From contig URQU01000003.1 of the NCBI GenBank assembly GCA_900550055.1, positions 15,661-79,660 on the forward strand: a stretch of 64,000 bases of DNA. The letters run 5' to 3'. The notes below the pieces were generated by a model that saw only the letters and a list, made by a program, of their open reading frames with translations, searched no databases and had not been told where the DNA came from. Positions 24,352-61,684 of this stretch are shown here, piece after piece (the stretch's first letter is position 1; each line of letters opens with the position of its first letter). The DNA comes from an uncultured Coriobacteriaceae bacterium. GTDB lineage: Bacteria > Actinomycetota > Coriobacteriia > Coriobacteriales > Eggerthellaceae. Both the position numbers and the translations under genes were made by a program.

Positions 24352-25110
24352 ATGGCTGATTACATCGAAGGCAAGCGCCCCGTCATCGAGGCGTTCCGTA
24401 CCGGCGTGCCCATGCGCCGTATCCTTATGGGCGACTACATGAAGCGCGATCCCATGATCGAGGACATCATGCGCAAGGCCAAGCGCAACGGCGTGAAGGT
24501 CATCCAGGTGCCTCGCGACGAGCTTGACCAGAAGTCCGCCCGCGGCAGCCACCAGGGCGTCATGGCCGAGGCCGCGCCGTTCAACTACGTGGGCATCGGC
24601 CAGGTGGTCGACGCCGCCAACAGCTACGCCGAAGAGCATGACGGCCGCGCGCTCGTGGTCCTGTGCGACCACCTCACCGACGCGGGCAACCTGGGCGCCA
24701 TCAGCCGCTCCTGCGAGGCCGTGGGCGCATCGGGCCTGATCATCCCCAACAAGCGCAGCGCACGCGTCGAGGCTTCCACGTACAAAAGCTCCGCGGGCGC
24801 CATCACGCACGTGCCCGTGGCGCAGGTTTCCAACATCGTGCAGAGCATCCACCGCTTGCAGGAGGAGGGCTTCTGGGTGTGCGCCGCAACCGAGCACACC
24901 GACGACCTGGTGTGGAATGCGAACCTGAAGGGCAAGATCGCCATCGTCTTGGGCAACGAGCACGACGGCGTGTCCCGCCTGGTTCTCGAGCATTGCGACA
25001 TGTACGCAAAGCTTCCGCTGGAAGGCGAAGTGGCCAGCCTGAACGTGGCCCAGGCCGCTACCGCCGTCATGTACGAGTGGCTGCGCCAGAATTGGGTTTC
25101 GCTGGCCTAA
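24352..25110 (+). CDS. rlmB: 23S rRNA 2'-O-methyltransferase, SpoU/TrmH family (RlmB-like)
   Basis: An N-terminal substrate-binding domain and a C-terminal SPOUT motif (LVLGNEHDGVSRLVLEHCD) are present. Confidence 0.8.
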   Translation: MADYIEGKRPVIEAFRTGVPMRRILMGDYMKRDPMIEDIMRKAKRNGVKVIQVPRDELDQKSARGSHQGVMAEAAPFNYVGIGQVVDAANSYAEEHDGRALVVLCDHLTDAGNLGAISRSCEAVGASGLIIPNKRSARVEASTYKSSAGAITHVPVAQVSNIVQSIHRLQEEGFWVCAATEHTDDLVWNANLKGKIAIVLGNEHDGVSRLVLEHCDMYAKLPLEGEVASLNVAQAATAVMYEWLRQNWVSLA

Positions 25111-25178
25111 CGGCCAGCGAGCCTGCTCGATGTTGCGGGGCGCTTTCGCACCCCGCCTTACGGCAGCTGCGCCCGGGT

Positions 25179-25397
25179 GTGAACAGGGGGCGGAGGTATG
25201 TTCACGGGTGTGTTTGGGAATTGCGGGTCTTCGTCGTGAACATGCCTCCGTCCCCTGTTCACGATGAAGATGGCGCGCAAGCGCCTATATTGACTTGGCG
25301 AATCCGTGATAACTTTGGCGGACTCGTGTCAATCGATATGCGGGCCTGCTCGTGAACACGCTTCCGTTCGCTGACCAGGGAACGGAAGCGTTCGATC
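25179..25397. repeat. cluster of GTGAACA-type hairpin / inverted repeats at the chromosome / mobile-element junction
   Basis: 25179-25205 (gtgaacagggggcggaggtatgttcac) and 25236-25262 (gtgaacatgcctccgtcccctgttcac) are near reverse complements of each other, and each is internally hairpin-forming. A third unit at 25352-25397 has the stem cgcttccgttc/gaacggaagcg. Confidence 0.4.
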
Positions 25398-25528
25398 GTC
25401 CCGCTGGTTTCGACAGACCTGCGGTGATTAATCACCGCATCGCATGAAAGGAGGGATGCGCGATGGCAAAGCAGCGTAAGAGTTTCCTGCTGTTCGATGG
25501 CTGCAATTATCGCTCCCTCCTATTTACA

Positions 25529-25554
25529 AACCCCCTGTTCAGGGGGCTTTTTCA
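25529..25554 (+). terminator. rho-independent terminator-like hairpin
   Basis: The stem ccccctg-ttc-aggggg is followed by a ctttttc tract. Confidence 0.45.
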
Positions 25555-25795
25555 TTTCTAGGGTGTGGAAACCTCCCGGCACCATGGCTCAAGATTCGAC
25601 CCAAAGCCGACTATTCCCATGGGCGATTGCCGAAAATGCCCCCAATCGAGTTGTGTTTTTCTCTCCATATGGACCGTTTATGGAGAAAAGCGCCTTCGTT
25701 TGCCGTTAATCGCGCAACCCGCGCGTTGAAACTCCCCCTCAGTGGGCATAAAGACCCCCAGGCCGCCGCTGCCGGCGGCTTACCCTCCGAGACGG

Positions 25796-26158: not shown

Positions 26159-26221
26159 TTCCGGTACGGGCCCCATGGCCCGTGCCTTTTTCATCCCGCA
26201 CATCTGCATAAATACGCATGC

Positions 26222-26250
26222 ACGCATATGCGCATATGCGCATATGCGTA
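26222..26250. repeat. tandem (CATATGCG)x3 alternating purine-pyrimidine repeat
   Basis: The sequence acgcatatgcgcatatgcgcatatgcg holds three NdeI-type palindromes immediately upstream of a promoter-motif copy. Confidence 0.6.
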
Positions 26251-26279
26251 ACCGCACATTTCCGTTTTTACGTGTTTGC

Positions 26280-26312
26280 GCGTTTACGCATCTGCACATC
26301 TGGGTAGATACA
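26280..26312 (+). promoter_or_regulatory. element promoter-motif copy 1 (TTTACG, 16 nt, TAGATA)
   Basis: The sequence is gcgTTTACGcatctgcacatctgggTAGATAc, with the -35-like hexamer at 26283-26288 and the -10-like hexamer at 26305-26310. It lies about 50 nt upstream of the 26364 gene. Confidence 0.55.
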
Positions 26313-26363
26313 GCACAGGATGCGGGCGCGAGCCCGCGATGGATGACCATGGAGGGATGGCAT

Positions 26364-26732
26364 ATGGGAAGGAAAGAGTCCGCCGGGAATCAGGCCGGCA
26401 CGGCGAGGATGACGGTCGGCGATAGGTTCTGGGCGCGGCGCATCCGTCCGATCTTCGACGACGGCGACCTCACGCTCGAGCAGAAGTCGGTCTTCTGCTG
26501 CATCGTGGCGCGCGACCCCATGTCGGTGGCGATCGAGTGCCCGGCGCGCGACATCGCGGCGGCCGAGGCCGGCCTGCCGCGCCGCGACTACGACGAGGCC
26601 CTGGACGCGCTCGAGCGCGGCGGCTACATCGTCGACATCGTGACGCCCTACGGCGAGGATCGGGACGGGGAACTCTGCATGGTCCCGATCCCCGCCGATA
26701 TCGTGAAGGAGGGGGTGCAGTGCCGTGGGTAG
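26364..26732 (+). CDS. hypothetical protein, first gene of the replication module
   Basis: A GGAGGG RBS sits 7 nt upstream of the ATG at 26364. The 123-aa protein overlaps the start of the rep-like gene. Confidence 0.45.
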   Translation: MGRKESAGNQAGTARMTVGDRFWARRIRPIFDDGDLTLEQKSVFCCIVARDPMSVAIECPARDIAAAEAGLPRRDYDEALDALERGGYIVDIVTPYGEDRDGELCMVPIPADIVKEGVQCRG

Positions 26733-28137
26733 CGCCAAGAGACACGACGCATCGGTGCAGTCCGCCGACCCCACCCGCGACGAGCTCGACGAGACCTTCG
26801 AGATCCTGGACCGCGACGGCGCGGTCGTCGTCTTCGGCGGCGACCTCATGGAGCGCGGCTTCGGCATCGTCTCGGCCAAGGCGACCGAGGACACCCGCCT
26901 GTCGTCGTCGGCCAAGGGCGTATACGCCTACTTCTGCGCCCATGCCGGCGCGGGCACCCATTCGCTGTTCCCGTCCGTGGACACGATCTGCACCCACCTC
27001 GCGATGTCGCGCAACACCTACTACCGCCACCGCCGCACCCTGGTCGAGTGCGGCTACATCAGCGTGCACCAGGGTCGCGCTCAGGGCCGCGGGCGCTATC
27101 TCTCGAACCGCTACGTCGTCAATGCCGAGATCCCCGAGGAGCGCCGTTTCGTGCCTGTCGATAACTCGAAATCGGCCGATGCCGCCGCTGTTGAAAACTC
27201 GCTTGGGGAAGACGCCGAAAACGAAGTTATCAACAACCCGCAGGATTCGCCGTGTACCAAAAATTGGTACACGGGCGACCAAACTAACGTTAGTTTGCAA
27301 CTAGATTCACCGTGTACCAATTTTTGGTACACGGGCCCAACTGGGAAAACGATTTCACCGTGTACCAATTTTTGCGACACTAACAAGGATGTTGTTATTG
27401 ATGTTAGTGAGAGAGGGCGCGCGGGCGCGCTGCCGTCTGTCGAAAACTCGGCGGTGTCGAAGGCCGCGGGCGACTCGGTCACGGTCGTGAAGGTCGCGTC
27501 GGAGGCCGGCCTTGGGCTCGAGACGGAGGTCTCGGTCTCCAACGCCGAGGTGCTTGCCCTCATGCGCATGTCCATCGGCAAGGCGGAGGTCTTCGCCGAC
27601 GTCGCCGAGGCTTATGCCCGTGTGCTGGCGGACGGCTGGACGCTTCCGCGCATCGGCCGCGCCTACGACACATACCGCCGCGAGTACGCGGCATCGCACA
27701 CCGACGGCCGCTACATCATGTCGCTGCCCAAGTTCCTCGCCGCCGGAAACGGCCTGAGGTTCTACGACCTGAGGGCCGATCTTGTCGATTCCGGCGCCGT
27801 GGCCGCGGCCGAGGAGAAGGCCGCCCCGTCGAAGGCGCCGACCCGCGAGCAGGTCCGAAATTACGTGCACGAGAAGGGCTATGACGCCCCCGACCCGGAC
27901 AATCCCGCCTACCGCGTGATCGACCCCGATGAGTTCTTCGACTACTACGAGGCGACCGGCTGGGTCCGGGCGGGCGGCGTGCCGATCGTCCGATGGAAGA
28001 ACGTCGTGAACACCTGGCGCCGCAAGCCCGCGCCGCGCTCCGCCCGTAAGTTCGGCCCGTCCGGGCCGAAGAGGGCCATGAGCGTCGCCGAGCGCGTGGC
28101 CGCCGATAGCGACTTCAGCGAATTCAACGACGACTAG
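26725..28137 (+). CDS. replication-initiator-like protein with an N-terminal helix-turn-helix
   Basis: KGVYAYFCAHAGAGTHSLFPSVDTICTHLAMSRNTYYRHRRTLVECGYI is an HTH of the type found in plasmid/phage replisome organisers. The gene contains palindromic iterons and is followed by a DnaC-like loader. Confidence 0.6.
   Translation: MGSAKRHDASVQSADPTRDELDETFEILDRDGAVVVFGGDLMERGFGIVSAKATEDTRLSSSAKGVYAYFCAHAGAGTHSLFPSVDTICTHLAMSRNTYYRHRRTLVECGYISVHQGRAQGRGRYLSNRYVVNAEIPEERRFVPVDNSKSADAAAVENSLGEDAENEVINNPQDSPCTKNWYTGDQTNVSLQLDSPCTNFWYTGPTGKTISPCTNFCDTNKDVVIDVSERGRAGALPSVENSAVSKAAGDSVTVVKVASEAGLGLETEVSVSNAEVLALMRMSIGKAEVFADVAEAYARVLADGWTLPRIGRAYDTYRREYAASHTDGRYIMSLPKFLAAGNGLRFYDLRADLVDSGAVAAAEEKAAPSKAPTREQVRNYVHEKGYDAPDPDNPAYRVIDPDEFFDYYEATGWVRAGGVPIVRWKNVVNTWRRKPAPRSARKFGPSGPKRAMSVAERVAADSDFSEFNDD
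27249..27410. repeat. iteron-like array inside the rep gene: three 30-bp units built on the palindrome GTGTACCAA-N5-TTGGTACAC, an extra palindrome aaactaac/gttagttt, and a flanking AT-rich stretch
   Basis: Units lie at 27251-27273 (perfect), 27311-27333 (perfect) and 27357-27381 (right half-site degenerate). Each is preceded by gattc(a/g)cc. The palindrome aaactaacgttagttt is at 27281-27296. An AT-rich stretch taacaaggatgttgttattgatgttagtgag follows. Confidence 0.6.
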
Positions 28138-28159
28138 CTCAGACGGAGGGAGAACCGAG

Positions 28160-29191
28160 ATGAACGACACGCAAGCGCAGGCGAGGCCGGTGAGGCCCAC
28201 GCTCGAGGAAGTCGAGGCCTACGTCCATGGGAAGGGCTACGACGTGCCCGGCGCCGCCAACGCCTTCTACGGCAACTTCTTCTACGCCTACCACGACGCC
28301 CGCGTCTGGCGGCGCGCGGACGGCACGCCGGTGGCCGACTGGAGGGCGGAGGCGGACACGTGGCATGAGAGGGGGCCGCACTACCTCGAACCGGAGCCAC
28401 GCGCCGCTGCCCCGGCACCCGCGGCGTCCGCTCTGGTCTCGGCGCCGGCACCCGAGGCCCCGGTCGCCTCGCCCGAGGCGCTTTCCGTCGGCGGTGCCCT
28501 GCCGCCGCTCGAGGTCGCCGACGTCGCGACCTTGGCCGCGACCGACCGCGCGTTCCATGAGGCGGTGGTCCGCAAGACCGGCATCCCGCCGCGCTTCGCA
28601 CGCCGCATCGCCGAGGGCGAGGCCGCCCCGGAGCATGCCTATGACGCGCGACTCGCGCGCGGCGGCGGGCTGTACATCTACGGCCCGCGCGGCGTGGGCA
28701 AGACCGAGCTGGCGTGCCGTATCGCCTACGACTACGCCGGCTCGCGCCTCGATCCCCGCTTCGGCAACTGGGCGTACCGTCCCGTCCCGAAGGGCAGGCC
28801 CAAGCACGGCGTCAGGTTCGTCGTCTCGGCCGACCTCATGACCGAGCTCCGCTCGACCTTCGACAAGGGAGGGGACAGCGAGGCCGACGTCATCCGCAGG
28901 TACGTGAACGTCCCGGTCCTGATCATCGACGACCTGGGCAAGGACTCCTCGACCCAGTGGGTGCTCGCGAAGCTGTTCCAGATCGTCAACGGCCGCTACG
29001 AGGCCGAGCGCGCCACGATCGTGACCAGCCAGTACACCCAGGCCGGCCTCGCCGCGGTGCTGTCGGAGTACGGCCGCAAGGAGGACGCCCTGGCGATCGT
29101 CTCGCGCCTGGCCGAGATGACCGAGCGCGTCAAGGTCGACGGCCCGGACCGCCGCATGGCGCCCTGCGACGCCGAGGGGGCCGGGCGATGA
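28160..29191 (+). CDS. DnaC/IstB-like AAA+ ATPase (helicase-loader candidate)
   Basis: Walker A is GPRGVGKTELA and Walker B is LIIDDLGKD. The N-terminal 60 aa are paralogous to the C-terminus of the upstream rep-like protein. Confidence 0.75.
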   Translation: MNDTQAQARPVRPTLEEVEAYVHGKGYDVPGAANAFYGNFFYAYHDARVWRRADGTPVADWRAEADTWHERGPHYLEPEPRAAAPAPAASALVSAPAPEAPVASPEALSVGGALPPLEVADVATLAATDRAFHEAVVRKTGIPPRFARRIAEGEAAPEHAYDARLARGGGLYIYGPRGVGKTELACRIAYDYAGSRLDPRFGNWAYRPVPKGRPKHGVRFVVSADLMTELRSTFDKGGDSEADVIRRYVNVPVLIIDDLGKDSSTQWVLAKLFQIVNGRYEAERATIVTSQYTQAGLAAVLSEYGRKEDALAIVSRLAEMTERVKVDGPDRRMAPCDAEGAGR

Positions 29192-29388
29192 GCCGCCGGG
29201 CCCCGCAGGAGGGGCGCAGCTATGAGCAGGCCCTCTACTCCGTCGTCCTGCTGGTTCCGCGCCTCCCGAGGCCCGAGCGCACCCGGACGGTGAGGGTCCT
29301 GCTCGACTTCATCGCCGGCCTCTGGGAGCTGGACCGCTCGCGCGTCGATGCGGACTTCGCATCGCTCGTGCGCGGGCTTCCCCGCTGA
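29188..29388 (+). CDS. small hypothetical protein (ATGA-coupled to the loader gene)
   Basis: It is 66 aa and its start overlaps the upstream stop codon. Confidence 0.3.
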   Translation: MSRRAPQEGRSYEQALYSVVLLVPRLPRPERTRTVRVLLDFIAGLWELDRSRVDADFASLVRGLPR

Positions 29389-29935: not shown

Positions 29936-30970
29936 ATGGACAGACGAGAGCTCGAGATCATGTTGAACGATGCCTTCGACCGCGGCATCGTCACGGCAAG
30001 GGCGGTAGAGGGAATCTATCCCCCCGCCGTCACGGTGGGAATCCTCGACGACCTCGGGCGCGAGATCGACTTCGGGCATGAAGGTAGCGGGTTGACGGTG
30101 TTTCTCCCTGGCATCGAGGACGATGCCCGTTTTGCCGGCTCGTGCAAGGCCCTCGGCGGCAAGGTGCCGCAGAACACCTATCGCATGGAACTTGTCTCGG
30201 CGATCGCCGGCGAGCTCATGGGCGCCGAGTCCGCCACCGCGCTCAGCGCCCTGGAATCCGCCCTGGACCGCGCGAGGCGAAGGGGCTACTGCGTGTTCGA
30301 CCGCGGCATCCACGGCGACGTCCCGGATCCCGGGCTGGTCTACCTGTGCTCGACCTACCCGGCGGCCGTCCGCCTGAAGGACTCCCTGGACTTCGTCCGG
30401 GCTCAGGGCAACGAGCCGGACCGTCACGCGCTCGGCACATACCGCATGGTGGACGGGTACTGCATCATGGGAGGGTTGGACGAGGTGCCGCTGGCGGACG
30501 CATACGCCGTGGATGCGGCCCTTATCGAGGACTGGGGTGTCGGCGATGCCGTCTTCCGCATCACCGACCTCAAGGCGAAGACGTTTTCGTATGCCGTCGA
30601 CGCCGACGGCGGGCAGAAGGCGTCGACGCTCGTCTACTACACCGATGAGGGCTCCGACCCGGTCCTCTTCCAGCAGACCGGCGGCGGCTGGCGCCTGGCG
30701 AGCGACAACTTCCTCGCCGAGAACTCGATCGTCGAAGACTTGGAGCGCGTCTATACCGGCGAAGTCTCGCCGGTATACCTCGATTCGCGAATCGTCGACA
30801 TGGAGGAGATGGCCGAGGCCTACGGCTGGGTGAGGCCGGGGAGGACCCCGGCCTCCATCGCCGCCGGCGCCCGGAAGGCCGCCGCGTCCTCGGCGGCCGA
30901 GGAATCCTCCCCCGGCAAGGTCGCCGCCGCGGCCCGCGAGGCCTCGAAGGACTCGGCTCCCCGACACTGA
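29936..30970 (+). CDS. hypothetical protein (344 aa)
   Basis: It is a non-repetitive, acidic, clean ORF with no motif I recognise. Confidence 0.5.
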   Translation: MDRRELEIMLNDAFDRGIVTARAVEGIYPPAVTVGILDDLGREIDFGHEGSGLTVFLPGIEDDARFAGSCKALGGKVPQNTYRMELVSAIAGELMGAESATALSALESALDRARRRGYCVFDRGIHGDVPDPGLVYLCSTYPAAVRLKDSLDFVRAQGNEPDRHALGTYRMVDGYCIMGGLDEVPLADAYAVDAALIEDWGVGDAVFRITDLKAKTFSYAVDADGGQKASTLVYYTDEGSDPVLFQQTGGGWRLASDNFLAENSIVEDLERVYTGEVSPVYLDSRIVDMEEMAEAYGWVRPGRTPASIAAGARKAAASSAAEESSPGKVAAAAREASKDSAPRH

Positions 30971-32094: not shown

Positions 32095-33501
32095 ATGATG
32101 CTTTTCGAATCTTTGATCTTCAACCTGCTCCCCGCAGCCGTCGGCATCATGGCCGTCGTGCTGGTGTTCGAGAGCTGCTGGCGCAAATGCCCGCCGGATA
32201 AGCTCATGATCGTCTCCGGCGCCGGCAAGATGCGCTCCGTCTCCGGCAAGGGAACCTTCGTGATCCCGCTCCTCCAGCGCGTGGACACCCTCTCGCTCGG
32301 TGCCGTGCAGGTGCAGCTGACCACCGAGAACGATATCCCGACGCAGGACGCAATCCTCATCCACGCCTGCGCCGTGGCGAACTTCCAGATCGGCCAGACC
32401 CCCGAGCTGATCGAGACCGCGTCCAAGAACTACCTGAATTTGGACAAAGAGGAGATGACGCGCCAGGTCACCGAGGTCATGCTGGGCAAGATGCGCGAGG
32501 TCATCGGCCAGATGGACCTCAAGGAGCTCATGCGCGACCGCGAGAGCTTCAACGCGAAGGTCTTCGGCGGCTCCAAGGACGACCTCGCCAACCTCGGCCT
32601 CGAGCTGCGCACCTTCAATGTGCAGGACTTCTCCGACTCCCAGGGCATCATCCGCTCCATGGGCGCCGATCAAGCGGCCGAGATTAAAAAGGAAGCCGAG
32701 CTGGCGCAGATCAAGGCGGCCGAGGAGGTCGCCATCCGCCAGAACCAGCTCGACTTGAAGCAGGCCGACCTCAAGAAGCAGGCCGACAAGGCGAAGGCCG
32801 AGGCCGATATGGTGAAGGCCACCGTGACGGCCGAGAAGCAGCGCGAGCTCTACATCGCCCAGCAGGAGGCCGAGATCGCCGCGGAGACCAAGAAGGTCGA
32901 GCTCGCCGAGCGCCAGGCGGACGTGAGGGAGCGCGAGCTGAACGCGACCGTGAAGAAGCAGGCCGAGGCCGACCGCTACGCCGCAGAGCAGGCGGCCGAA
33001 GCCGACCTCTACAAGCGCACGAAGCAGGCCGAGGCCGCCCGCATCGAGCGTCAGAACCAATCCGACGCCGAGCTGTATTCCGCCCAGAAGGACGCCGAGG
33101 GCATCCAGGCCCGCGCGAAGGCCGAGGCCGAGGCCACGCGCTTGAAGGGCGAGTCCGAGGGTGCGGCCGAGAAGGCCCACGGCGAGGGCGTCGCGGCGGG
33201 AATCAAGGCCCAGGCCGAGGCGTACAACGGCATGGATAACCCCTACCTGCTCGCCAACCGCTACATCGACATCATGCCCAAGGTAGCCGAGCAGGTTGCG
33301 AAGCCCCTCACTGCCGTCGATTCCATCAAGATGTACGGATCGGGCAACGCGCAAAAACTCGTAAAGGAGACTACATCGATTGTCGACCAGGTCGCATCCG
33401 GCCTGAAGGACAGCACGGGAATCGACCTGCCGTCCCTGCTGAACGGTCTGATCTCGAACCCCAATATCGATGCCGACTCCGCCGAGAACTCGGTGGAGTG
33501 A
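32095..33501 (+). CDS. flotillin-family SPFH protein (YqiK/FloA-like)
   Basis: An N-terminal hairpin TM and SPFH core are followed by a long Ala/Glu-rich coiled coil with EA repeats. Confidence 0.85.
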   Translation: MMLFESLIFNLLPAAVGIMAVVLVFESCWRKCPPDKLMIVSGAGKMRSVSGKGTFVIPLLQRVDTLSLGAVQVQLTTENDIPTQDAILIHACAVANFQIGQTPELIETASKNYLNLDKEEMTRQVTEVMLGKMREVIGQMDLKELMRDRESFNAKVFGGSKDDLANLGLELRTFNVQDFSDSQGIIRSMGADQAAEIKKEAELAQIKAAEEVAIRQNQLDLKQADLKKQADKAKAEADMVKATVTAEKQRELYIAQQEAEIAAETKKVELAERQADVRERELNATVKKQAEADRYAAEQAAEADLYKRTKQAEAARIERQNQSDAELYSAQKDAEGIQARAKAEAEATRLKGESEGAAEKAHGEGVAAGIKAQAEAYNGMDNPYLLANRYIDIMPKVAEQVAKPLTAVDSIKMYGSGNAQKLVKETTSIVDQVASGLKDSTGIDLPSLLNGLISNPNIDADSAENSVE

Positions 33502-33875
33502 TGGTCGTCCCGCTGATCGCCGCGGCCTTGCTGCTCGATTTCTTAGGCTGCATGATGCCCCTGGCATTGGTCGAGGACACCAAGGCATTTAAGGTCGGCG
33601 TGTTCCTGATTTGGGCGGCGCTGGTGGCGGATTCCGTCCTGATGGGCTTGTTCTATCCGAGGGAGCTGGCGGGGGTGAATCCCCTGTTGGCGGCAGGTCT
33701 CGAATCGATATGCCTCATCTGTGCCATGTATCCCCTGCATGGGTTCGCATCGAACTTGGCCCCCTGTGGCATCCGGGTCGATACTGCCGCGGCCCTCGCC
33801 TTCATAGACTTCCTCGTGACCGCTGTGGGATATGTCTCCCTGCTCTTGGGTACGATCTGGCTTATATTCTTCTAG
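33498..33875 (+). CDS. small 4-TM membrane protein coupled to the flotillin gene
   Basis: Its start overlaps the flotillin stop by ATGA. It is 125 aa and all hydrophobic helices. Confidence 0.5.
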   Translation: MMVVPLIAAALLLDFLGCMMPLALVEDTKAFKVGVFLIWAALVADSVLMGLFYPRELAGVNPLLAAGLESICLICAMYPLHGFASNLAPCGIRVDTAAALAFIDFLVTAVGYVSLLLGTIWLIFF

Positions 33876-46611: not shown

Positions 46612-46626
46612 ATCCGTTCCTTTCAT

Positions 46627-50395: not shown

Positions 50396-50821
50396 ATGAG
50401 CATCAACCGAGTCAACATCACCGGAAACCTCACCCGCGATCCCGAGCTCCGCGCCACCGCGGCCGGCACCCAGGTGCTCTCGTTCGGCATCGCCGTCAAC
50501 GATCGCCGAAAGAACCCGCAGACCGGCGAGTGGGAGGACTATCCCAATTACATCGACTGTACCATGTTCGGCACCCGCGCCGAGGCTGTCGGCCGCTATA
50601 TCTCCAAGGGGAGCAAGGTCGCGATCGAGGGCAAGCTGCGCTATAGCTCCTGGGAGCGCGACGGCCAGAAGCGCAGCAAGCTCGAGGTCATCGTCGACGA
50701 GATCGAGTTCATGAACTCCCGCCCTGCCGCGTCTCCTGCTGCCGCGGTTGATGGTGGACAGCAGTATGCGGTCCCCGAGGCTCCCGCCGTCGAGGTTGCG
50801 GACGAGGACATCCCGTTCTAG
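50396..50821 (+). CDS. ssb: single-stranded DNA-binding protein
   Basis: MSINRVNITGNLTRDPELR is an SSB OB-fold N-terminus. A flexible linker and an acidic tail ending DEDIPF follow. Confidence 0.9.
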   Translation: MSINRVNITGNLTRDPELRATAAGTQVLSFGIAVNDRRKNPQTGEWEDYPNYIDCTMFGTRAEAVGRYISKGSKVAIEGKLRYSSWERDGQKRSKLEVIVDEIEFMNSRPAASPAAAVDGGQQYAVPEAPAVEVADEDIPF

Positions 50822-51660: not shown

Positions 51661-52209
51661 ATGAAGACAATCGTTTTGGTCAACCAAAAGGGCGGCGTCG
51701 GCAAGACGACGTTCGCCGACGAGATCGCCTGGGGCCTCGAGCGCCGCGGGCGTGAGGTCGGCTTCATCAACCTCGACCCGCAGGGCGGCGCGAGTCACGA
51801 GCAGAAGACCGTCGAGGGCGAGAAGGCCGTCACCGTCGTCGACACCCCGGGCTATCTGAACGACAAGCTCGGCGGCTGCGTGGAGGTCGCCGACATCGCG
51901 ATCGTCCCCGTCGAGCCCAGCCAGCGCGGCCTTCGCGCGATGAAGCGCACGATCCAGCTCATCACGGGCGTCAACCCCGAGCTCGAGATCGGCCTGATCG
52001 TGAACCGCTATTCCGACAAGCGAATCATCGACCGCAGCTTTACCGACTTCCTCACCGCCGACGACCTGCCCATCCTGGGCTGCGTGCCGACCGCCGAGGC
52101 GTTCAAGCGCGGCGCGTCGTTCAACCGACCGGTGTCCGAGGTGCAGCCGGGCGGCCGCGCGGCGGACGCGATCGAGGGGATTCTGGACAAGGTGGAGGCG
52201 ATGCTGTAA
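51661..52209 (+). CDS. parA: ParA/MinD-family partition ATPase (small type)
   Basis: It has the deviant Walker A NQKGGVGKTT and is 182 aa. Confidence 0.85.
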   Translation: MKTIVLVNQKGGVGKTTFADEIAWGLERRGREVGFINLDPQGGASHEQKTVEGEKAVTVVDTPGYLNDKLGGCVEVADIAIVPVEPSQRGLRAMKRTIQLITGVNPELEIGLIVNRYSDKRIIDRSFTDFLTADDLPILGCVPTAEAFKRGASFNRPVSEVQPGGRAADAIEGILDKVEAML

Positions 52210-52508
52210 TGGCGAGGACTAAGAAGGCGGACTCCGCCATCAACAGCTTTTTCACTGACACCTCCAAGGAGATGGTCGAGCGCCAGGAGACGATCGTCGA
52301 GAAGGTCGTGAACCCCGACTCCGAGCCGGCAGCTGAGAAAAAGGCGGCGGCCTCTGAGGGCCCGACGCACCGCCTGAGCGTGATCGTCCCCGACGACCTC
52401 TACTGGCAGCTCAAGGAGTACCTGGTGGAGCACCGCCGCGAGGGCTACCGCAGTGCGAGCGACCTCATGCGCTCGCTGCTCGAGGAGCATCTGCGCAAGG
52501 ACCGCTAG
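52209..52508 (+). CDS. ribbon-helix-helix partition/centromere-binding protein (ParG/CopG-like)
   Basis: Its start overlaps the parA stop by ATG/TAA. THRLSVIVPDDLYWQLKEY is an RHH beta-strand and helix. Confidence 0.55.
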   Translation: MARTKKADSAINSFFTDTSKEMVERQETIVEKVVNPDSEPAAEKKAAASEGPTHRLSVIVPDDLYWQLKEYLVEHRREGYRSASDLMRSLLEEHLRKDR

Positions 52509-53807: not shown

Positions 53808-53810
53808 AGG

Positions 53811-55631
53811 GTGCTGAGGGGCCGGGGAGTGCAGGCCGCACAGCTGCCCGAACCTGCCGCCGTCCCAGTCCAGCGCCCCGCGTCTCCCGCCCTGGCTCCC
53901 GCACTGAGGACCATATCGGGAGAGACACCGCACTACCGCGCGCGCTTCGAGGTCGCAGCGGCCGACGGCGCGGACGCGGCCGAGGCCGTGAAGGAGATCG
54001 TCATGGGCTGGCTGCACGCCAAGGGCCTGGACGTACCGGAGGGCGCCGCGGACATCGCGGTGCCCGCGGGCTGGACGGCCGCCGACGAGCCCGACGCCGC
54101 CAAGGCCGTCCGCTTTCTCGGCCTATCCGGCGCGCAAGGCGCGGCATGGGCGGTCGAGGCCGATGAGCTCGACGGCGAGTTCTCGCGCCGCCGCTGGCAC
54201 ACGAGGATCGGCCTCGCACCCGCCGGAGACGGCGGGTGCATCCTCAACGTGCAGGTATCGCACTACGCCGTCAACGGCTTTTTCGGATACCAGCGCAACC
54301 CGCTGCCGTCCGTGCCGCGCGTCGTGCGCGATATCCTTGCGAACGGAAAGCTAGACGTGAGGATCGGCGCGTCGCGTGTGAGCGTCGAGGAGATATACCT
54401 TGACGCGGACACGCTAAAGCGCGATTTCATGTCGAGCCTGACCGATCGCGCGCGCTGCCTGCCGATCGTCCTCATGACGACCGACGACGACGGCAAGACC
54501 CCCGTATGGGATGCGACCGAGCTCGCATCGAAGCTCGTGGGCATGGCCACCGTGTACGTCATCGACATGCGCGACGGCGCGTTGGTGCAGGCGTTCCGCG
54601 ACCTGCTGCCCGACCGGACACCGGCCGGGCGCTACAGGATCGGGCGCAGCGCGGTCATGGTATACCGTCCGGGCATCGACCTGTCGGGCGAGGAATCTCT
54701 ATCGGCCTGCACGCTCTTCACGCGCCACAGAATCGAGCGCTATGCCGCGGGCGGGCGCGACGGTTTCATCAACGTGCTCATGCAGGGCCTCGGCCGCGGC
54801 ATCGACGCCCGACCGGGCGACGTCGCCGGAATCGGCGACGTGCTGTGGCTGCGCAGCCGAGTCGAGAGCGAGCGGCAGGGCGAGCGCATCGAGCGCCTGC
54901 GCTCGCGCGCGAAGGCGGCAGCCGAGCCGGTCGCCGATATCGACGGGCTGCGCGCGGAGAACGCGCGCCTGCGTGCCGATGCCGAGGCCTGGGAGGAGAT
55001 CGCGACGGACCAGGAGCGGAGCTATTCCGACGGCACGGCAAAGGTGGACGAGCTCACGAGGACCGTCCAGCGCCTCGAAGGCGAGAAGCGCGCGCTCGAA
55101 CGCAAGGCGGCGCAGTGCGCGGCACCGTCGGACGACGACGGTGCCGCGAGGGTGGCCGAATGCCTCCAGTCGATCCCGCGCGACCTGACGGACCTCCTGA
55201 AGCTCGCGCGATCCATCTGGCCCGAACGTATCGTCGTCCTGCCCGAGGCAATGGACTCCGCGAAGTCCTACGACGGCAACCTCGCCGAGGAATGGGATAT
55301 CGTCCGCAGCACCGCGACGGCGCTCTACGGCCTCCTGTTCGAGGACGACGGTTGCGAGGGGCAGGTCGCAGACGAGTTCCAGCGCCGTACGGGCTACGAG
55401 CTCACCTTCAGCGAGAGCAGCGCCACCAGGGCGCGCGCCGATCTGATGAAGATGCGCGAGAGGAGCTACGGCGGCCGAACCGTCGACATCTCCGCCCACA
55501 TCAAGGGGAGGAGCCAGAAGAACACCTTCCGCCTTCACTTCTACATCGATCGGGAAAACGAGCTGATAGTCATAGGGCATGCCGGATGCCACATGAAGAC
55601 CGCCGGCTCGCACCGTCGCGGTTTCAAGTAG
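53811..55631 (+). CDS. large hypothetical protein (606 aa) with a central coiled-coil segment
   Basis: It has no motif I recognise. The coiled-coil segment reads ENARLRADAEAWEE ... LEGEKRALERKAAQ. Confidence 0.55.
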   Translation: MLRGRGVQAAQLPEPAAVPVQRPASPALAPALRTISGETPHYRARFEVAAADGADAAEAVKEIVMGWLHAKGLDVPEGAADIAVPAGWTAADEPDAAKAVRFLGLSGAQGAAWAVEADELDGEFSRRRWHTRIGLAPAGDGGCILNVQVSHYAVNGFFGYQRNPLPSVPRVVRDILANGKLDVRIGASRVSVEEIYLDADTLKRDFMSSLTDRARCLPIVLMTTDDDGKTPVWDATELASKLVGMATVYVIDMRDGALVQAFRDLLPDRTPAGRYRIGRSAVMVYRPGIDLSGEESLSACTLFTRHRIERYAAGGRDGFINVLMQGLGRGIDARPGDVAGIGDVLWLRSRVESERQGERIERLRSRAKAAAEPVADIDGLRAENARLRADAEAWEEIATDQERSYSDGTAKVDELTRTVQRLEGEKRALERKAAQCAAPSDDDGAARVAECLQSIPRDLTDLLKLARSIWPERIVVLPEAMDSAKSYDGNLAEEWDIVRSTATALYGLLFEDDGCEGQVADEFQRRTGYELTFSESSATRARADLMKMRERSYGGRTVDISAHIKGRSQKNTFRLHFYIDRENELIVIGHAGCHMKTAGSHRRGFK

Positions 55632-56639: not shown

Positions 56640-56990
56640 ATACGGCCGTGACGGTATCCGAGCCGTATCGGACTTGCAACAGATGAGCAGCGTCCCGTTC
56701 GTCGCGAAAGAGACGAGGGACAGCCGAAACGCGGACGGTATAACGGCATCGGATGACCGGTGTAAACCGGTTTAAACCCAGGCAAATAGGGGTAGGATAC
56801 TGAAAACTTCGCAAGAGACGCATACTTGTACCTCCATCGTAGATGTATGTACAAGTATGCCACCGAAGTCGGTCAGATTTCCGCCACCGGGCACAGCCCG
56901 CCGACGGAAATCTGACCGCCTCCGGCGCTTGCCAGGGCTCCGCCCTTGGACCGGGGTCGCGCACAGGTGCGCGAGGAATTGGAGGAAGCG
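56640..56990. promoter_or_regulatory. candidate oriT / relaxosome region upstream of mobC
   Basis: GC drops locally. A perfect 12-bp palindrome taaaccggttta lies at about 56764-56775. An inverted repeat acttgtac-N17-gtacaagt lies at about 56825-56857. Confidence 0.3.
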
Positions 56991-57019
56991 TGGCAGAAAA
57001 AGCCACCTCGCAGACAAGA

Positions 57020-57601
57020 ATGGTCAGCATCAGGTTGACCGAGGAGGAAATCAGCACCCTCAAGGCTAAAGCGAGTCTTGCGGGCACGACCGTCACAGAC
57101 TTCGTCCGCGAGACGGCGATCTACGGCAAGCAGGAGTTCACGCTGGCGAAGCTGCCCGGCGGCGAGCGCGTGGACGTGAAGGAGGCGCTGGAAGGGTTAC
57201 TCGACACCGAGCACCGCACGGTGCAGAAGCATTTCAACGTGACGCCTTACGAGGACACCTTCATCCGTGACGCCGCGAGGAAGGCCGGCATGACGCAATC
57301 GCGCTTCATGGTCGACCGCATCCTCCACACGCCCATGTACTACATCGGCGACCCCGACTTCTTCCAGAAGTTCTTCTACGAGCTCAACAAGCAGGGCGTG
57401 AACCTGAACCAGCTGGCCGCCGCGGCGAACACGCTGATCCTCCTCCAGGACATGCCCGACATGGCCAGGGAGCGCCGCTGCGAGCTCGCGGCGCAGATCG
57501 AGCACTTCGTAGCGACCCTGAAAGACCCATACTGCAAGGCGCTCGCGGAGACGCGCGGCCTCATGATGCAGCTCAGGCGGCAGTCCGAGGTGGAGCGATA
57601 G
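57020..57601 (+). CDS. mobC: MobC-family mobilisation (relaxosome accessory) protein
   Basis: The RHH-like N-terminus is RLTEEEISTLKAKASLAGTTVTDFVRE and the MobC motif is GVNLNQLAAAAN. The start could be the ATG at 57020 or an upstream GTG. Confidence 0.7.
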   Translation: MVSIRLTEEEISTLKAKASLAGTTVTDFVRETAIYGKQEFTLAKLPGGERVDVKEALEGLLDTEHRTVQKHFNVTPYEDTFIRDAARKAGMTQSRFMVDRILHTPMYYIGDPDFFQKFFYELNKQGVNLNQLAAAANTLILLQDMPDMARERRCELAAQIEHFVATLKDPYCKALAETRGLMMQLRRQSEVER

Positions 57602-57602
57602 C

Positions 57603-59663
57603 ATGGCCATGCTCAAGACGCTCGCCCGGAAGTTCGGCGGCTGCAAGCAGATAAAGGACTACCTCGCGCGCAACGGCCGCGCCGTGACGTTCCGCTCAAG
57701 CTCAATCGATCTCGATAGCGCCGGCTGGGACGGGCAGATGGACGCGACGCGCCAGGTGTTCGGCAAGGATACGGGCCGCAAGTACTACCATTTCGTGATC
57801 TCACCCGATCCCGAGGACGGCCTGGATGCCAAGGCGGTAGACGCATTGGCATGCGATTGGGTGCGCGAGCGCTACAGCGGATATCAGTGGGTGATCGAGA
57901 CTCATATAGATAACGGCATTCCGCATGCACATATCGTCGTCAACTCCGTCAACCCCGTTGACGGGAGGAAGATACACCTCGACGACGATGACGTGCAGGC
58001 CGACGCGATGGAGTTGCAGAGAATCTGCCGCGACTACGGCTACACCGCCTTCGACAACTTCAAGTTCACGAGGGACGAGGACGGTTCCTGGTACGCACGC
58101 ACGCCGCGCCCCGACCGCCGGCGCGAGGTCGTCTTGCAGGAGGCGCGCCCGGCGCGCCGTCATATGACGGACGCCCAGCGCCGCGCCAGGTACAGCGGCA
58201 AGAAACTCTGGACCGATGCGATGCACGACGATATCGAGTCGGCTTTGCAGGGGTGCCGGACATGGCCCGCGCTCGAGAGGCGTTTGGCGGAGAAGGGCTA
58301 CCGCATCAATATCAACCGCCGCGGAGTGCTGACCTTCTACCCGCCCGAGGGCAAGGGCCATCCCGTGAAGGGTTACAAGCTGGACGACTCCTATACGGTC
58401 GAGGGATTGCGCGAGCGCCTTGCCGTGCGACTCGAGGGACAGCGCCCGAACGTGAAGATGTGCACCGAGGACCTTGTCCCGGACGTCGTCCTGCCGCCCA
58501 TGACTTTCGAGGCGGTCGCATCCAACAATCTCGAGCGGTCTAAGAGGATCGAGCGCTCCGCCGCCCGCCTTGCCGCCGCGGCCGACGCCGTGAACATTAT
58601 CCGAGAGCGCGGCTACCGCTGCTATGCGGACATGGCGGCCGATGCCAGGCGCCTCGCCGCCGAGGTCGACGCGCTCGACGCGAGGGTCGACGCGCTCAAG
58701 CTGGAGGCCGAGCAGACCGCCGAGGCCATCCGCCAGGTCGAGGTCTACACGTCTTGCGTCGCGCAGTTGACCGCGCGCCCGGAAGGAGCCGAAGCGCTCG
58801 CGGCATGGCGCGAGGACAATGCAGACGAGCTTCGCGAGATGGAATCGATCCGCAAGTGGATGGCCGAGCGCGGAATCGTGCTCACCGATATGACATACAC
58901 GGACCTCCTCGCACGCCGCGACGGCGTCAGGGCCGACGTGGCGAACCTCGCTTCCATGGCAGTCGATATCCGCAACCGCTCGCGCCGACTTTCCGCCGCT
59001 GTCGATGTCCTGGACTCATCGCAGATGCCGATTGGCCCCATAGATGTACGGGGCCGCGGCGAGAGGCAGAAGGGCGCCGGTCACGGCCTGCGCGACGCCA
59101 AGGTCATCACCGCGAACCAGACCGCCGAGCTGACGCGCGAGTACACGCGCTATCGCAAGGCCTATTCGGGGGCCATCGCGGCGGGCGCCCTCACGCCGGA
59201 TAAGATCAAGCAGATTGAGCGCGACCACGAGCGGGCCAAGGCGAAGATCATCGGCGAGCAGCGCGAGGAGGACCTGCGCGCGGAACGCTCGGCGTACGGG
59301 ATGGCCGGAAGCGAATGGGCGCAGGATGCTCCCGTGACGGTCGCCGCACCCGGCGGGACGGACAAGAGGTCGAAGCCCGGATGGAAGCCGTACCTCCAGC
59401 GCCCCGCGACCGAGAAGCAGATGAAATATCTCGAAGACCGCGTAGAGTCCGGCATCATCGCGCAGGCCGACATCGACAGCCTCGGCGGCGAGCCGACCAT
59501 CGCGGACGTCAACGCGCTCCTGAACTCGCATCCCAAGGTCAAGAACCTGGAGCTTGAGAAGATGGACGGCGACGGCGCGGACGGCACACGGACGTACACG
59601 CAGACCCGAGACGATATCGAGGACGACGGCTATACGCCGGCGAACTACACGAGGAGGAGATAG
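57603..59663 (+). CDS. MOB relaxase (relaxase/mobilisation nuclease domain) with a long coiled-coil C-terminus
   Basis: The N-terminal relaxase motifs are YYHFVISP and HxH HAHIVVNSV. It is 686 aa and ATGA-coupled to mobC. Confidence 0.85.
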   Translation: MAMLKTLARKFGGCKQIKDYLARNGRAVTFRSSSIDLDSAGWDGQMDATRQVFGKDTGRKYYHFVISPDPEDGLDAKAVDALACDWVRERYSGYQWVIETHIDNGIPHAHIVVNSVNPVDGRKIHLDDDDVQADAMELQRICRDYGYTAFDNFKFTRDEDGSWYARTPRPDRRREVVLQEARPARRHMTDAQRRARYSGKKLWTDAMHDDIESALQGCRTWPALERRLAEKGYRININRRGVLTFYPPEGKGHPVKGYKLDDSYTVEGLRERLAVRLEGQRPNVKMCTEDLVPDVVLPPMTFEAVASNNLERSKRIERSAARLAAAADAVNIIRERGYRCYADMAADARRLAAEVDALDARVDALKLEAEQTAEAIRQVEVYTSCVAQLTARPEGAEALAAWREDNADELREMESIRKWMAERGIVLTDMTYTDLLARRDGVRADVANLASMAVDIRNRSRRLSAAVDVLDSSQMPIGPIDVRGRGERQKGAGHGLRDAKVITANQTAELTREYTRYRKAYSGAIAAGALTPDKIKQIERDHERAKAKIIGEQREEDLRAERSAYGMAGSEWAQDAPVTVAAPGGTDKRSKPGWKPYLQRPATEKQMKYLEDRVESGIIAQADIDSLGGEPTIADVNALLNSHPKVKNLELEKMDGDGADGTRTYTQTRDDIEDDGYTPANYTRRR

Positions 59664-59666
59664 ACG

Positions 59667-60758
59667 GTGAATATCATCGTGAAGATGCACGACAGGGCCC
59701 GCGTGATCGAGACGACGCGCATGGACCTGCACAGCGGCATCATGCTCGAGGACGACTTCCTCGACATTTCCGATTGCCTGAACCAGGGCGTGCTTCTCGA
59801 GCGCAGCGTCTTCATCACCACGAGTGACGACATGCAGCTCCTCAAGCGCGCCGTGACGATCATCGAACCGGACGAGCTGGACGCCATAGACGGCGTCTAT
59901 GCGGACGGCAAGCCGATCCTCGTGAGGACCGAGGACGGTTCGCGTTTGGCTCCGGCCGTCTTCGAGGTGCTGTTCGACGACAGCGGCAACTACTTGGGCG
60001 ACCACGGGCAAGGCCTCTGTATTTACTATGAGTCCGGCAGCTACGAGACGATCGTGCCGACCGTGCTCTCGTTCGGAGACGGCATGCTCATGGCCGACGA
60101 CCTGATCGATTGGAGCGACCTGGACTCGGGCATCACCTGGACCCGCGGAACCTGGACACGCGGCGACCGGAACCTCATGGAGCTCCGCCCCGAGCCCACG
60201 GTCGTGGTCGACCCGGAGCAGTACGCGCACATGGAGCTCATGACCTTCGGCGGCGCGCTCGTGGCCATGAAGACCGCGGGCGGCATGGTGAGCGGCGGCG
60301 GCACCGTCTCGGACGATCCCGATGCCGACGATGCCGAGACCGAAAGCGAACCGCAGCCGTCCCAAGACGCGGAAACCGATGGCGCTACGGCAGACGCCGC
60401 CGAAGACGGCCCCGACGACCGAGCCTCAGCGGAAGACGTCCCCGATACGGATTCACTCGAGTCTACCGCGGACACCGCGGGAGACGGCTCGGAGGCAGAT
60501 ATCGACCTCGAACCCGGCGGCTCGGAGACCGAGTCCGCCGAGATTGACAGACTTGAGTATGAGTACGGCCTATTGAAGAAGGTCGAGGATTATCGGGCTG
60601 GCAGGCTTGAGACCGTGACGCTCGACGAGCTGGAGGAAAGCCTTGGCTTGGCGAGTCGAGGTCGACAAGGACATCCAGCGTTCGATGAAGACAGTGACGA
60701 CGATGATGACAGCGACGACTACGAGGAAGACGATTCGATGTTCGCCGACCTCTTCTAG
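59667..60758 (+). CDS. highly acidic hypothetical protein (C-terminal D/E-rich tail)
   Basis: It is 363 aa. The last about 130 aa are poly-acidic (DDPDADDAETESEP ... DEDSDDDDDSDDYEEDD). It lies immediately after the relaxase. Confidence 0.55.
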   Translation: MNIIVKMHDRARVIETTRMDLHSGIMLEDDFLDISDCLNQGVLLERSVFITTSDDMQLLKRAVTIIEPDELDAIDGVYADGKPILVRTEDGSRLAPAVFEVLFDDSGNYLGDHGQGLCIYYESGSYETIVPTVLSFGDGMLMADDLIDWSDLDSGITWTRGTWTRGDRNLMELRPEPTVVVDPEQYAHMELMTFGGALVAMKTAGGMVSGGGTVSDDPDADDAETESEPQPSQDAETDGATADAAEDGPDDRASAEDVPDTDSLESTADTAGDGSEADIDLEPGGSETESAEIDRLEYEYGLLKKVEDYRAGRLETVTLDELEESLGLASRGRQGHPAFDEDSDDDDDSDDYEEDDSMFADLF

Positions 60759-60772
60759 AAAGTAGCAACAGT

Positions 60773-61680: not shown

Positions 61681-61684
61681 ACCC

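Follow-up and report, generated by a model that had tools for sequence, protein, structure and literature searches.

The left part of a probable integrative and conjugative element inserted in yacP of an uncultured Coriobacteriaceae bacterium

RESULTS AND DISCUSSION

The stretch of DNA analyzed here, called the window, comprises 64,000 nucleotides of contig URQU01000003.1 from an uncultured Coriobacteriaceae bacterium (assembly GCA_900550055.1). With a probability of roughly 85%, the region from position 25482 to the right end of the window is the left part of an ICE (integrative and conjugative element) of about 105 to 135 kb that resides in the gene yacP, and neither a plasmid contig nor a merely mobilizable element. 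A prediction made from the sequence alone had assigned positions 25110 to 60760 to a plasmid-like mobilizable element of about 36 kb. Its general statement, mobile DNA that was acquired horizontally and possesses plasmid-like genes for maintenance and mobilization, is supported, and the switch in gene content after rlmB to genes for a rep-like protein, a DnaC-like loader, ssb, parA, a mobC-like protein, a relaxase, and a helix-turn-helix (HTH) regulator was confirmed by the Pfam and PHROG scans. The boundaries, the size, and the type of the element had to be revised.

Reading frames in the window, which has a GC content of about 63%, were chosen by third-position GC, and the proteins were scanned against Pfam, PHROG, PADLOC, and NCBIfam. 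PHROG, PADLOC, and NCBIfam gave no match for most of the uncharacterized open reading frames (ORFs) of the window. Loci that were fetched from public assemblies and metagenome contigs for comparison with the window carry L numbers. ARAGORN and Rfam found no RNA gene or family in the window, which rules out an attachment (att) site of the tRNA type.

The left end of the element splits yacP

The exact RlmB protein of the window was present in 741 index blocks of the collection, in which empty and occupied sites were both represented. At empty sites with an identical rlmB, the gene order is rlmB-yacP-GT2-YfhO-rpoB-rpoC with a yacP product of 179 amino acids (aa), and such empty rlmB-yacP sites were found in L008, L010 to L015, L150 to L152, L155, L156, and L159. 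At occupied sites, rlmB is followed by a 32-aa ORF as a stub of yacP and subsequently by the genes for the SSB-like, HTH_36, and DnaC-like proteins; the SSB-like gene also comes first among the genes of the element in L006, L007, L009, L147, and L168. An alignment of the window with the empty site revealed identity through GATGGCAAAGCAGCGTAAGA (25462 to 25481, the start of yacP) and divergence afterwards. This indicates that the element begins at 25482 within yacP and not at 25110, where its left boundary had been predicted. The junction 25481/25482, which is located inside codon 7 according to the empty-site alignment and the comparison of the att sites, places the insertion at codons 7 to 9 of the chromosomal yacP (NYN/Rae1-like) between rlmB and rpoB. 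A scan of genomes with YacP gave 97 to 99% identity to Senegalimassilia anaerobia and relatives and assigned the host to Senegalimassilia, and in some genomes the YacP match begins only at residue 4 or 5. As would be expected of an ICE, there is a defined chromosomal insertion site, the left junction attL in yacP, with empty sites in the relatives.

The right end is located beyond the window

The window contains no second copy of the junction 20-mer, and none was present in the fetched extensions or up to the window-equivalent position of 72.9 kb (L001/L080). Because a second att copy is missing and the same genes continue past 64000 on near-identical contigs, position 60760, the predicted right boundary, is not an end of the element. 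The gene order past the relaxase gene carries on in contigs that are 99.7 to 99.98% identical to the window, with genes for a GT2 glycosyltransferase, a 406-aa protein, an HNH protein, an AbiEi/AbiEii pair, and more uncharacterized proteins. A 120-kb metagenome contig (L080, the same contig as L001) that is 99.98% identical to the window reaches the window-equivalent position of 72.9 kb, and a second metagenome contig (L084; 98.7% identity to L080 and 99.7% to the window) reaches 82.9 kb. Pfam found nothing in the ten ORFs of L084 between 72.9 and 82.9 kb. Loci L139, L160, and L165 of “Slackia isoflavoniconvertens” PPTO01000001.1, 99.7% identical to the window, contain HxlR genes, a second AbiE pair, and a complete Tad locus. 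The overlaps of these five loci with the window or with one another were 98.7 to 99.98% identical, with cargo genes followed by the Tad locus.

The other end was found in related copies of the element. In two of the genomes with the late-starting YacP match, L021 and L023, the region upstream of yacP possesses a gene for a 303- or 314-aa protein, a tyrosine integrase gene, and a gene for a VirD4-type coupling protein, and the right end in L021, L153, L154, L157, L158, and L167 contains yacP' (183 aa) and the genes for the 303-aa protein, the integrase, HTH_17, VirD4, and TrbL_2. Genes for VirB4 and PrgI are located past that for TrbL_2 in L079 and L147. The HTH_17 gene near the integrase gene is Xis-like. 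The integrase of 438 aa adjoins the right junction, attR, in related copies, one of them on a contig that also holds a related attL; the copy in the window should possess a counterpart beyond position 64000. For the copy in the window, the motif CCCGA-N7-GCTGGTGGACGGCTACAACGTG would be expected about 80 to 110 kb downstream, after the genes for the 303-aa protein and the 438-aa integrase. In attR, the right arm of the element is followed by GAAGATCCTGCTG and the remaining yacP, which provides yacP with a new start codon and the new N terminus MARKETASRPKILLVDGYNV. In the joined site, attP, of contig L079, the same right arm is directly connected to a left arm of the window type, which means that the left end in the window and the end with the integrase and the type IV secretion system (T4SS) belong together as the ends of a single kind of element. 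The T4SS genes for VirD4, VirB4, PrgI, and TrbL_2 are linked to the window-type left end by attP junctions in related copies.

As had been predicted, no tyrosine or serine recombinase gene and no T4SS gene was among the genes of the window, judged from the Pfam scans and the comparison loci. The suggestion of an integrated mobilizable element with an integrase past 64000 was correct with respect to the integrated state and to an integrase beyond the window, as seen in relatives, and a search of the flanks, carried out in near-identical and related contigs, found this integrase adjoining attR at the restored yacP. It did not hold for the type of element. An integrative mobilizable element (IME) would carry a relaxase or an origin of transfer (oriT) and no T4SS of its own, but in the relatives the element with the left end of the window carries a T4SS, as well as the Tad locus and the tyrosine integrase at attR, which points to a T4SS-bearing ICE.

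Several contigs allowed an estimate of the size. On contig PPTP01000001.1 of S. anaerobia, attR is located at 111 kb, the genes for the integrase, VirD4, and TrbL_2 at 111 to 120 kb, and the same Tad ATPase gene as in PPTO01000001.1 at 162 kb. On scaffold_3 of ERZ28636193 (578 kb), attL is at about 159.9 kb (L009) and attR at about 293.9 kb (L154, L172), giving an integrated element of about 134 kb. The PPTO/PPTP type should have about 115 kb and the window variant, with an extra segment of 11.1 kb, about 126 kb, assuming collinearity in both cases. Instead of the predicted 36 kb or so, the whole element may thus comprise roughly 105 to 135 kb, and the window holds the left ~38 kb, about the first third.

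The Tad/Flp-type pilus locus, which exists besides the T4SS, contains two TadB/C genes, those for CpaF and CpaB/RcpC, and three TadE-like genes (L143, L160, L165, L166). Some variants of the element encode a 2005-aa SNF2-type helicase adjoining a TnpV-like gene. The 11.1-kb segment (L084:2269-13413, window-equivalent ~69.5 to 80.6 kb) is part of the window-type element and missing from PPTO01000001.1 (L139). It is bounded by paralogous genes for proteins of 441 and ~565 aa, which are fused to a single 603-aa gene in the shorter form, so that this indel looks like a recombination between paralogues within the element. The 303-aa gene between the integrase gene and attR (L021:7792-8736; L153, L154, L167) gave no Pfam match; more than 1000 contigs carry its exact sequence, and some NCBI records label the protein “tyrosine recombinase XerC / core-binding domain protein.” A degenerate recombinase is one possible identity of this protein, a directionality factor another.

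Joined ends in metagenomes and a variable 7-mer

Junctions of the attP type, with the genes for the integrase and the 303-aa protein on one side and those for the SSB-like, HTH_36, and DnaC-like proteins on the other, were found in at least 10 metagenome contigs (L079, L147 to L149, L168, L171, L173 to L175, and L177). L168 is 99.2% identical to window positions 25480 to 30365, and the left arm of the window recurs at its attP junction together with the 7-mer GTTTCCT. The attP contigs include ERR11485532_1558, ERZ27282457 k141_148789, SRR22902061_2316, ERZ28617886 scaffold_171, and ERZ28667637 scaffold_24. Five contigs, of 107, 117, 103, 116, and 114 kb, contained such a junction with one exact integrase sequence, and in a 113-kb contig the junction had an integrase of the same cluster. 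The position of the junction varied among the 103- to 117-kb contigs, and their lengths fit the estimated size of the integrated element, which is the pattern of circularly permuted assemblies of a circular molecule. This suggests that a circular form of the element exists.

The integrase is not confined to one host. The exact sequence present in the five attP contigs adjoins yacP in three chromosomal contexts, in Senegalimassilia, in Eggerthella lenta CP089333.1, and in a 2-Mb contig, and identical sequences of PrgI, TrbL_2, and VirD4 carry the source names Collinsella, Eggerthella, and Gordonibacter. At NCBI, the coupling protein is named “VirD4-like, CD1115 family.” The integrase cluster contains ACV54898.1 of E. 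lenta DSM 2243, and the clusters of the integrase, VirD4, and the 303-aa protein comprise about 1,900 to 3,900 sequences each.

The attP and attL copies are composed of near-invariant arms and exactly 7 variable nucleotides after ...GA, which read AGATCCT, GTGCGGT, GTTTCCT (in the window), or AACTGCT. This comparison took in window positions 25482 to 25488 and the att sites of L006, L007, L009, L079, L147 to L149, and L168 to L177. At every attR copy, the 7-mer was apparently that of the host itself; native yacP genes possess AGATCCT in Senegalimassilia and AACTGCT in Gordonibacter. The data suggest that the 7-mer is a 7-bp overlap region that tolerates heterology. Heterology-tolerant overlap regions are present in Tn916 and CTnDOT. 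The foreign 7-mer was that of attL in 4 of 4 cases, while attR had it in none of the 8 Senegalimassilia copies, and this restriction to attL does not fit a simple model of heteroduplex segregation. As a tentative thought that we hold to be possible and still rather doubtful, the element could be a replicon with a dual lifestyle: in some gut Coriobacteriia it would persist as a conjugative plasmid of ~105 to 120 kb by means of its O-like initiator, iterons, DnaC-like loader, SSBs, and ParA, and in others it would be integrated into yacP, with the 7-mer as a coupling sequence that records the yacP of the former host. If this were true, routes of transfer between genera would be readable from attL and attP sequences in metagenomes.

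DNA processing and maintenance modules

The relaxase and oriT that belong to an ICE are represented in the window by a PF03432 relaxase, a NikA-like gene, and candidate oriT hairpins (Table 1). With the curated model NF041893 (TraI_MobP_relax), the relaxase obtained 54.6 bits compared to a cutoff of 250, so that the generic PF03432 match is the only significant one, and a PDB sequence search gave zero matches for this protein. It is only distantly MOBP-like.

The predicted rep-like gene with iterons is indeed present, since three 33-nt palindromic units are located inside the HTH_36 gene. The DNA of the iteron region folds much better than its shuffles (z = -6.41). An origin within the initiator gene is plausible because the HTH_36 protein matches replication-initiator, O-like, and DnaD-like PHROGs and the gene contains the iterons. 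The ParA assignment is backed by Pfam, and the ribbon-helix-helix (RHH) nature that had been ascribed to its partner depends on one PDB match with an E value of 0.2. Positions 51679 to 51965 of parA share 79 to 89% nucleotide identity with parA of Collinsella plasmids.

The CA/TG-rich intergenic spacers of the original prediction were verified as six dense clusters of GCRYAT hexamers, every one of them intergenic and within the element. Such clusters were found neither in window positions 1 to 25000 nor in 20 shuffles. The common motif that had been interpreted as a promoter is real: a 29-nt sequence, TTTACG-N14-GGGTAsAyAC, occurs in 5 copies, all on the + strand and each upstream of rightward genes, preceding the rep operon, a membrane-protein gene, ssb, a 90-aa gene, and parA. 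It fails the sigma-70 criteria of the promoter scan, which leaves it a putative promoter. Two 78-nt segments (50186 to 50263 and 50894 to 50971), which are 88% identical, flank ssb, each directly upstream of a copy of this motif. They were rejected as a structured element, as their fold is no better than that of shuffles.

Evaluation of alternative explanations

Evaluation of these results needs to consider that the modules could belong to more than one element. Two elements could reside in tandem at yacP, an IME of ~40 to 70 kb with rep, par, and relaxase genes and no T4SS, and a neighboring ICE that provides the integrase and the T4SS in trans. This would agree with the presence of a relaxase/oriT and a replication module in a window devoid of recombinase and T4SS genes and with the variation of the cargo among copies such as the 11.1-kb indel, and the joint between the two elements (Int | SSB-like) would also look like attP. 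The 103- to 117-kb contigs, however, hold both modules with one attP junction, an internal att-like arm was absent from the window and from the sampled interior segments L080, L084, L139, L160, L165, and L166, and there was neither a second integrase in ~100 kb of sampled element nor a further relaxase in the sampled parts adjoining the T4SS module. A tandem arrangement is therefore improbable. The contig or the region as an autonomous plasmid is even less probable, and for the copy in the window this identity was refuted by the attL junction to the chromosomal flank with rlmB and yacP. This flank is core chromosome, for which sister strains have empty sites; synteny of rlmB and the genes upstream of it extends over many Senegalimassilia genomes, and yacP is split precisely at the junction. 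What remains of the plasmid idea is the plasmid-like character, with rep and iterons of the plasmid type, ParA and its nucleotide identity to Collinsella plasmids, SSB, a relaxase, and the circular-looking metagenome contigs of about the size of the element, whose attP junctions suggest a circle. A comparison with a plasmid database, which had been proposed, yielded little: megablast against the 72,556 plasmids of PLSDB gave no match for 25110 to 50000 and three short Collinsella matches for 44000 to 64000. The least credible explanation is a prophage or phage-plasmid. PHROG matches of the initiator and the loader, an SSB, and an HNH gene just past the window would be in line with it, but there are a relaxase and a T4SS, the Pfam and PHROG scans of the window and its extensions detected no capsid, portal, terminase, or tail family, and scans of IMG/VR with the relaxase and VirD4 found no relatives. 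This origin was dropped due to the absence of virion structural and packaging genes from these scans and of IMG/VR relatives.

Some observations also weigh against a single ICE of 105 to 135 kb. Tandem arrays would yield an identical attP-type junction. The sizes disagree, with ~134 kb for the element on scaffold_3, the left part of which is only ~96% identical to the window, ~115 kb for the PPTO/PPTP type under the assumption of collinearity, and 103 to 117 kb for the attP contigs. For the copy in the window itself, the right two-thirds are deduced from contigs 99.7 to 99.98% identical in the overlap and from related elements, and the interval between the Tad locus and the TrbL_2 gene, ~31.6 kb in PPTP01000001.1, is outside the sampled isolate contigs.

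The favored interpretation, a yacP-inserted ICE, combines the directly observed features (the junction, the gene content, the empty sites, the attP, attR, and attL sequences, and the contiguity of both ends in relatives) with excision, transfer, and autonomous replication, which would be its presumed activities. In the window, the maintenance module would consist of the SSB-like protein, the 122-aa gene, the O-like initiator with its intragenic iterons, the DnaC-like loader, the second ssb, and ParA with its small partner. The candidate oriT hairpins, the NikA-like accessory protein, and the relaxase would form the DNA-processing module, and the flotillin, the PIF1-like helicase, the pPIWI-RE island, HEC-07, and the GT2 glycosyltransferase the cargo and defense part. 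Past the window, further cargo including an AbiE pair, the Tad-type pilus, the Gram-positive-type T4SS (VirB4, PrgI, TrbL_2, VirD4), the Xis-like HTH_17 protein, the integrase, the 303-aa protein, and attR should follow. The integrase would recombine attL with attR to form a circle, the relaxase would nick oriT, and one strand would be exported by the T4SS. The rep/DnaC/SSB/ParA module could then mediate plasmid-like replication and segregation of the circle until it is reintegrated into yacP of a new host.

Other features of the window

The coordinates of the features are listed in Table 1. The original prediction had mentioned neither the pPIWI-RE island nor the PIF1-like helicase, the flotillin gene, and the HEC-07 candidate. 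The three-gene pPIWI-RE defense island is complete (36476 to 43309) and forms one leftward operon, with all three Pfam families above the gathering cutoffs. A lipoprotein gene is located between this operon and a leftward block headed by the HTH regulator, in which the four hypothetical proteins up to 49520 had no match in Pfam, PADLOC, or PHROG.

TABLE 1 Features in the window at the left end and in the left part of the element
Feature	Position	Strand	Evidence and comments
rlmB, SpoU-type 23S rRNA methyltransferase	24352..25110	+	Pfam SpoU_methylase 1.2e-38 and SpoU_sub_bind; chromosomal flank outside the element
Truncated yacP, 32-codon remnant	25463..25561	+	First 6 codons chromosomal; remainder is element sequence mimicking yacP
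attL crossover region, left end of the element	25482..25506	.	Variable 7-mer GTTTCCT (25482-25488), then element arm GCTGTTCGATGGCTGCAA; attL/attB/attP/attR comparison
Terminator-like hairpin and T-run	25531..25552	+	Adjacent to the left end, within the element
Divergent SSB-like OB-fold gene, 111 aa	25823..26158	+	Pfam SSB 3.7e-06
CA/TG-rich repeat cluster, then copy of the shared motif at 26283-26311	26198..26312	+	CGCATATG x3.2 at 26223-26248
122-aa gene, first of the rep operon	26364..26732	+	Also called in L007, L009, L147
Replication initiator-like protein (HTH_36; phage O-like/DnaD-like)	26725..28137	+	Pfam HTH_36 9.6e-17; PHROG replication-initiation families 2e-14
Three 33-nt iterons within the rep gene, palindromic core CCGTGTACCA-N5-TGGTACACGG	27244..27384	.	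Repeat search; candidate vegetative origin
DnaC/IstB-like AAA+ helicase loader	28160..29191	+	Pfam IstB_IS21 9e-13; PHROG DnaC-like loader 8.9e-39; NCBIfam matches
344-aa conserved hypothetical protein	29936..30970	+	No Pfam, PHROG, PADLOC, or NCBIfam match; kept in related elements
Flotillin/SPFH (Band 7) membrane protein	32095..33501	+	Pfam Band_7 3.9e-21, Flot 5e-07
125-aa membrane partner of flotillin	33498..33875	+	Adjoins the flotillin gene
PIF1/RecD-like SF1 helicase	34964..36412	+	Pfam PIF1 1.3e-25, AAA_30, UvrD_C_2
pPIWI-RE protein: X domain, MID, RNaseH-like PIWI	36476..39001	-	Pfam pPIWI_RE_X 1.7e-65, RNaseH_pPIWI_RE 9.7e-44, MID_pPIWI_RE 3e-18; PADLOC PprPIWI 1.9e-143
pPIWI-RE-associated DinG-like helicase	38988..42110	-	Pfam pPIWI_RE_Z 1.1e-34; PADLOC PprDinG 1.1e-93; start codon set from translation
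pPIWI-RE-associated restriction endonuclease-fold protein	42107..43309	-	Pfam pPIWI_RE_REase 2.1e-27; PADLOC PprRE; start codon set from translation
HTH regulator (weak HTH_31/HTH_3, Aca2-like)	46183..46626	-	Pfam; followed by four minus-strand hypotheticals out to 49520
Canonical SSB	50396..50821	+	Pfam SSB 5.1e-32
Small ParA partition ATPase	51661..52209	+	Pfam CbiA/AAA_31; NCBIfam ParA_partition 1.5e-28, under the cutoff of that model
99-aa ParA partner, possibly RHH	52209..52508	+	Sole PDB match CopG RHH, E = 0.2
600-aa candidate defense protein, HEC-07 family	53829..55631	+	PADLOC HEC-07 1.3e-30 over full length; no Pfam match
Candidate oriT: two adjacent long inverted repeats I1, I2	56820..56925	+	Directly upstream of the operon with the relaxase gene; -38.6 kcal/mol for the DNA fold, z = -8.66
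Relaxosome accessory protein, NikA-like/MobC-like, RHH N terminus	56990..57601	+	Pfam NikA-like 2.7e-23; NCBIfam MobA 9.6e-10, under cutoff
Relaxase, MobA/VirD2-type nuclease domain	57603..59663	+	Pfam Relaxase (PF03432) 1.6e-21; NCBIfam TraI_MobP_relax 8.9e-15, far under cutoff
Right part of the window, still element	59667..64000	+	Acidic 363-aa protein, low-GC spacer, GT2 glycosyltransferase, start of 406-aa gene cut by the window end
GT2 glycosyltransferase	61929..62861	+	Pfam

In the right part of the window, the GC content falls to ~0.56 between 60760 and 61930, a mostly noncoding segment that precedes the GT2 gene and contains two small ORFs (49 and 76 aa), and only 80 to 90% of the positions in this segment are identical among otherwise near-identical copies of the element. 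Positions 60537 to 60691, at the 3' end of the gene for the acidic 363-aa protein, share 93.5% identity with the antitoxin/RelE region of a Collinsella aerofaciens plasmid of 6.6 kb, and the C terminus of this protein weakly matches a RelB-like antitoxin model.

The chromosomal flank also varies. A block of ~8.4 kb left of rlmB (window 15829 to 24243) encodes NrfD, GntR, Band_7, a molybdopterin oxidoreductase, a 4Fe-4S protein, NrfD, and a chaperone; it is missing from several Senegalimassilia genomes, in which 15829 is joined straight to 24243. Locus L006 contains at 6282 to 7651 an insertion sequence (IS) element with HTH and rve transposase genes between the capsule gene cpsB and an aldo-keto reductase gene, and the window has no IS element at the corresponding position (~13760 to 13793).

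Significance and comparison with known systems

The family of yacP-inserted ICEs is very common in human-gut Coriobacteriia, and the element carries several defense systems, pPIWI-RE, HEC-07, and two AbiE pairs. The att site in yacP, the candidate oriT, and the candidate autonomous origin could aid genetic tool construction for the Eggerthellaceae, a group that is difficult to manipulate. With respect to boundaries, the lesson is that what looked like a plasmid-like block without an integrase was, on the favored interpretation, the initial third of a far larger ICE. In the literature, no paper was found on yacP as a target or on the att sites or modules of the element, and in the papers found the element has probably been noted only as an unnamed hot spot of horizontal gene transfer in E. 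lenta.

ICEs with a Gram-positive T4SS (mating pair formation type MPF-FA) include Tn1549-like elements and the CTn elements of Clostridioides difficile. Taken together with its relatives, the yacP element shares with them a tyrosine integrase at one end accompanied by an Xis-like HTH protein, a PF03432 relaxase and an accessory protein of the RHH type, VirD4, VirB4 (DUF87/P-loop_TraG), PrgI (VirB3-like), and TrbL_2 (VirB6-like). In contrast to them, it is several times larger, inserts site specifically into the 5' end of yacP, and possesses a rep/DnaC/SSB/ParA module, a Tad pilus locus, and several defense systems, and its relaxase is far under every curated NCBIfam relaxase cutoff.

The SXT/R391 ICEs integrate in prfC. 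The yacP element resembles them as an ICE of ~100 kb in the 5' end of a housekeeping gene that it supplies with a new 5' end, and in the plasmid-like circular stage, suggested for the yacP element, with replication and ParA-type partition. The hosts of SXT/R391 are Gram negative, however, their T4SS is of the MPF-F type, and the genes are unrelated. Their replication starts from oriT by the relaxase, whereas the yacP element has a dedicated O-like initiator with iterons. For SXT/R391, replication and ParA-type partition in the plasmid-like circular stage are established (PMC4489591). The actinomycete ICEs (AICEs), such as pSAM2, have 9 to 24 kb, transfer double-stranded DNA by an FtsK-like TraB, and are inserted in tRNA genes (PMC3218068). 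An actinobacterial host, a tyrosine integrase, an own replication initiator, and an integrated state that would alternate with a replicating circle are common to both, but the yacP element has a relaxase, a T4SS, and a protein-coding target gene.

A pPIWI-RE three-gene island belongs to a family that has been described (PMC3702460). The island found here likewise encodes a REase-fold protein, a DinG-like helicase with a Z domain, and a pPIWI-RE protein with X, MID, and RNaseH domains in one operon, in this case as cargo of an ICE. A conjugative plasmid of 44 to 48 kb in E. lenta is different from the yacP element (PMC13060105, 2026 preprint). A further related system is ROI1, a T4SS island of ~150 kb in E. 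lenta DSM 2243, for which homology to S. isoflavoniconvertens, Gordonibacter, and S. anaerobia has been reported (bioRxiv 10.1101/304840, 2018 preprint). The yacP element was found in the same taxa, and its integrase cluster includes ACV54898.1 of DSM 2243; judged from this accession, ROI1 probably belongs to the same family. The ROI1 paper flags a hot spot of horizontal gene transfer only, without att sites, target gene, modules, or a circular form (bioRxiv 10.1101/304840). Compared to these systems, the yacP element is a poorly characterized ICE of an already known general type.

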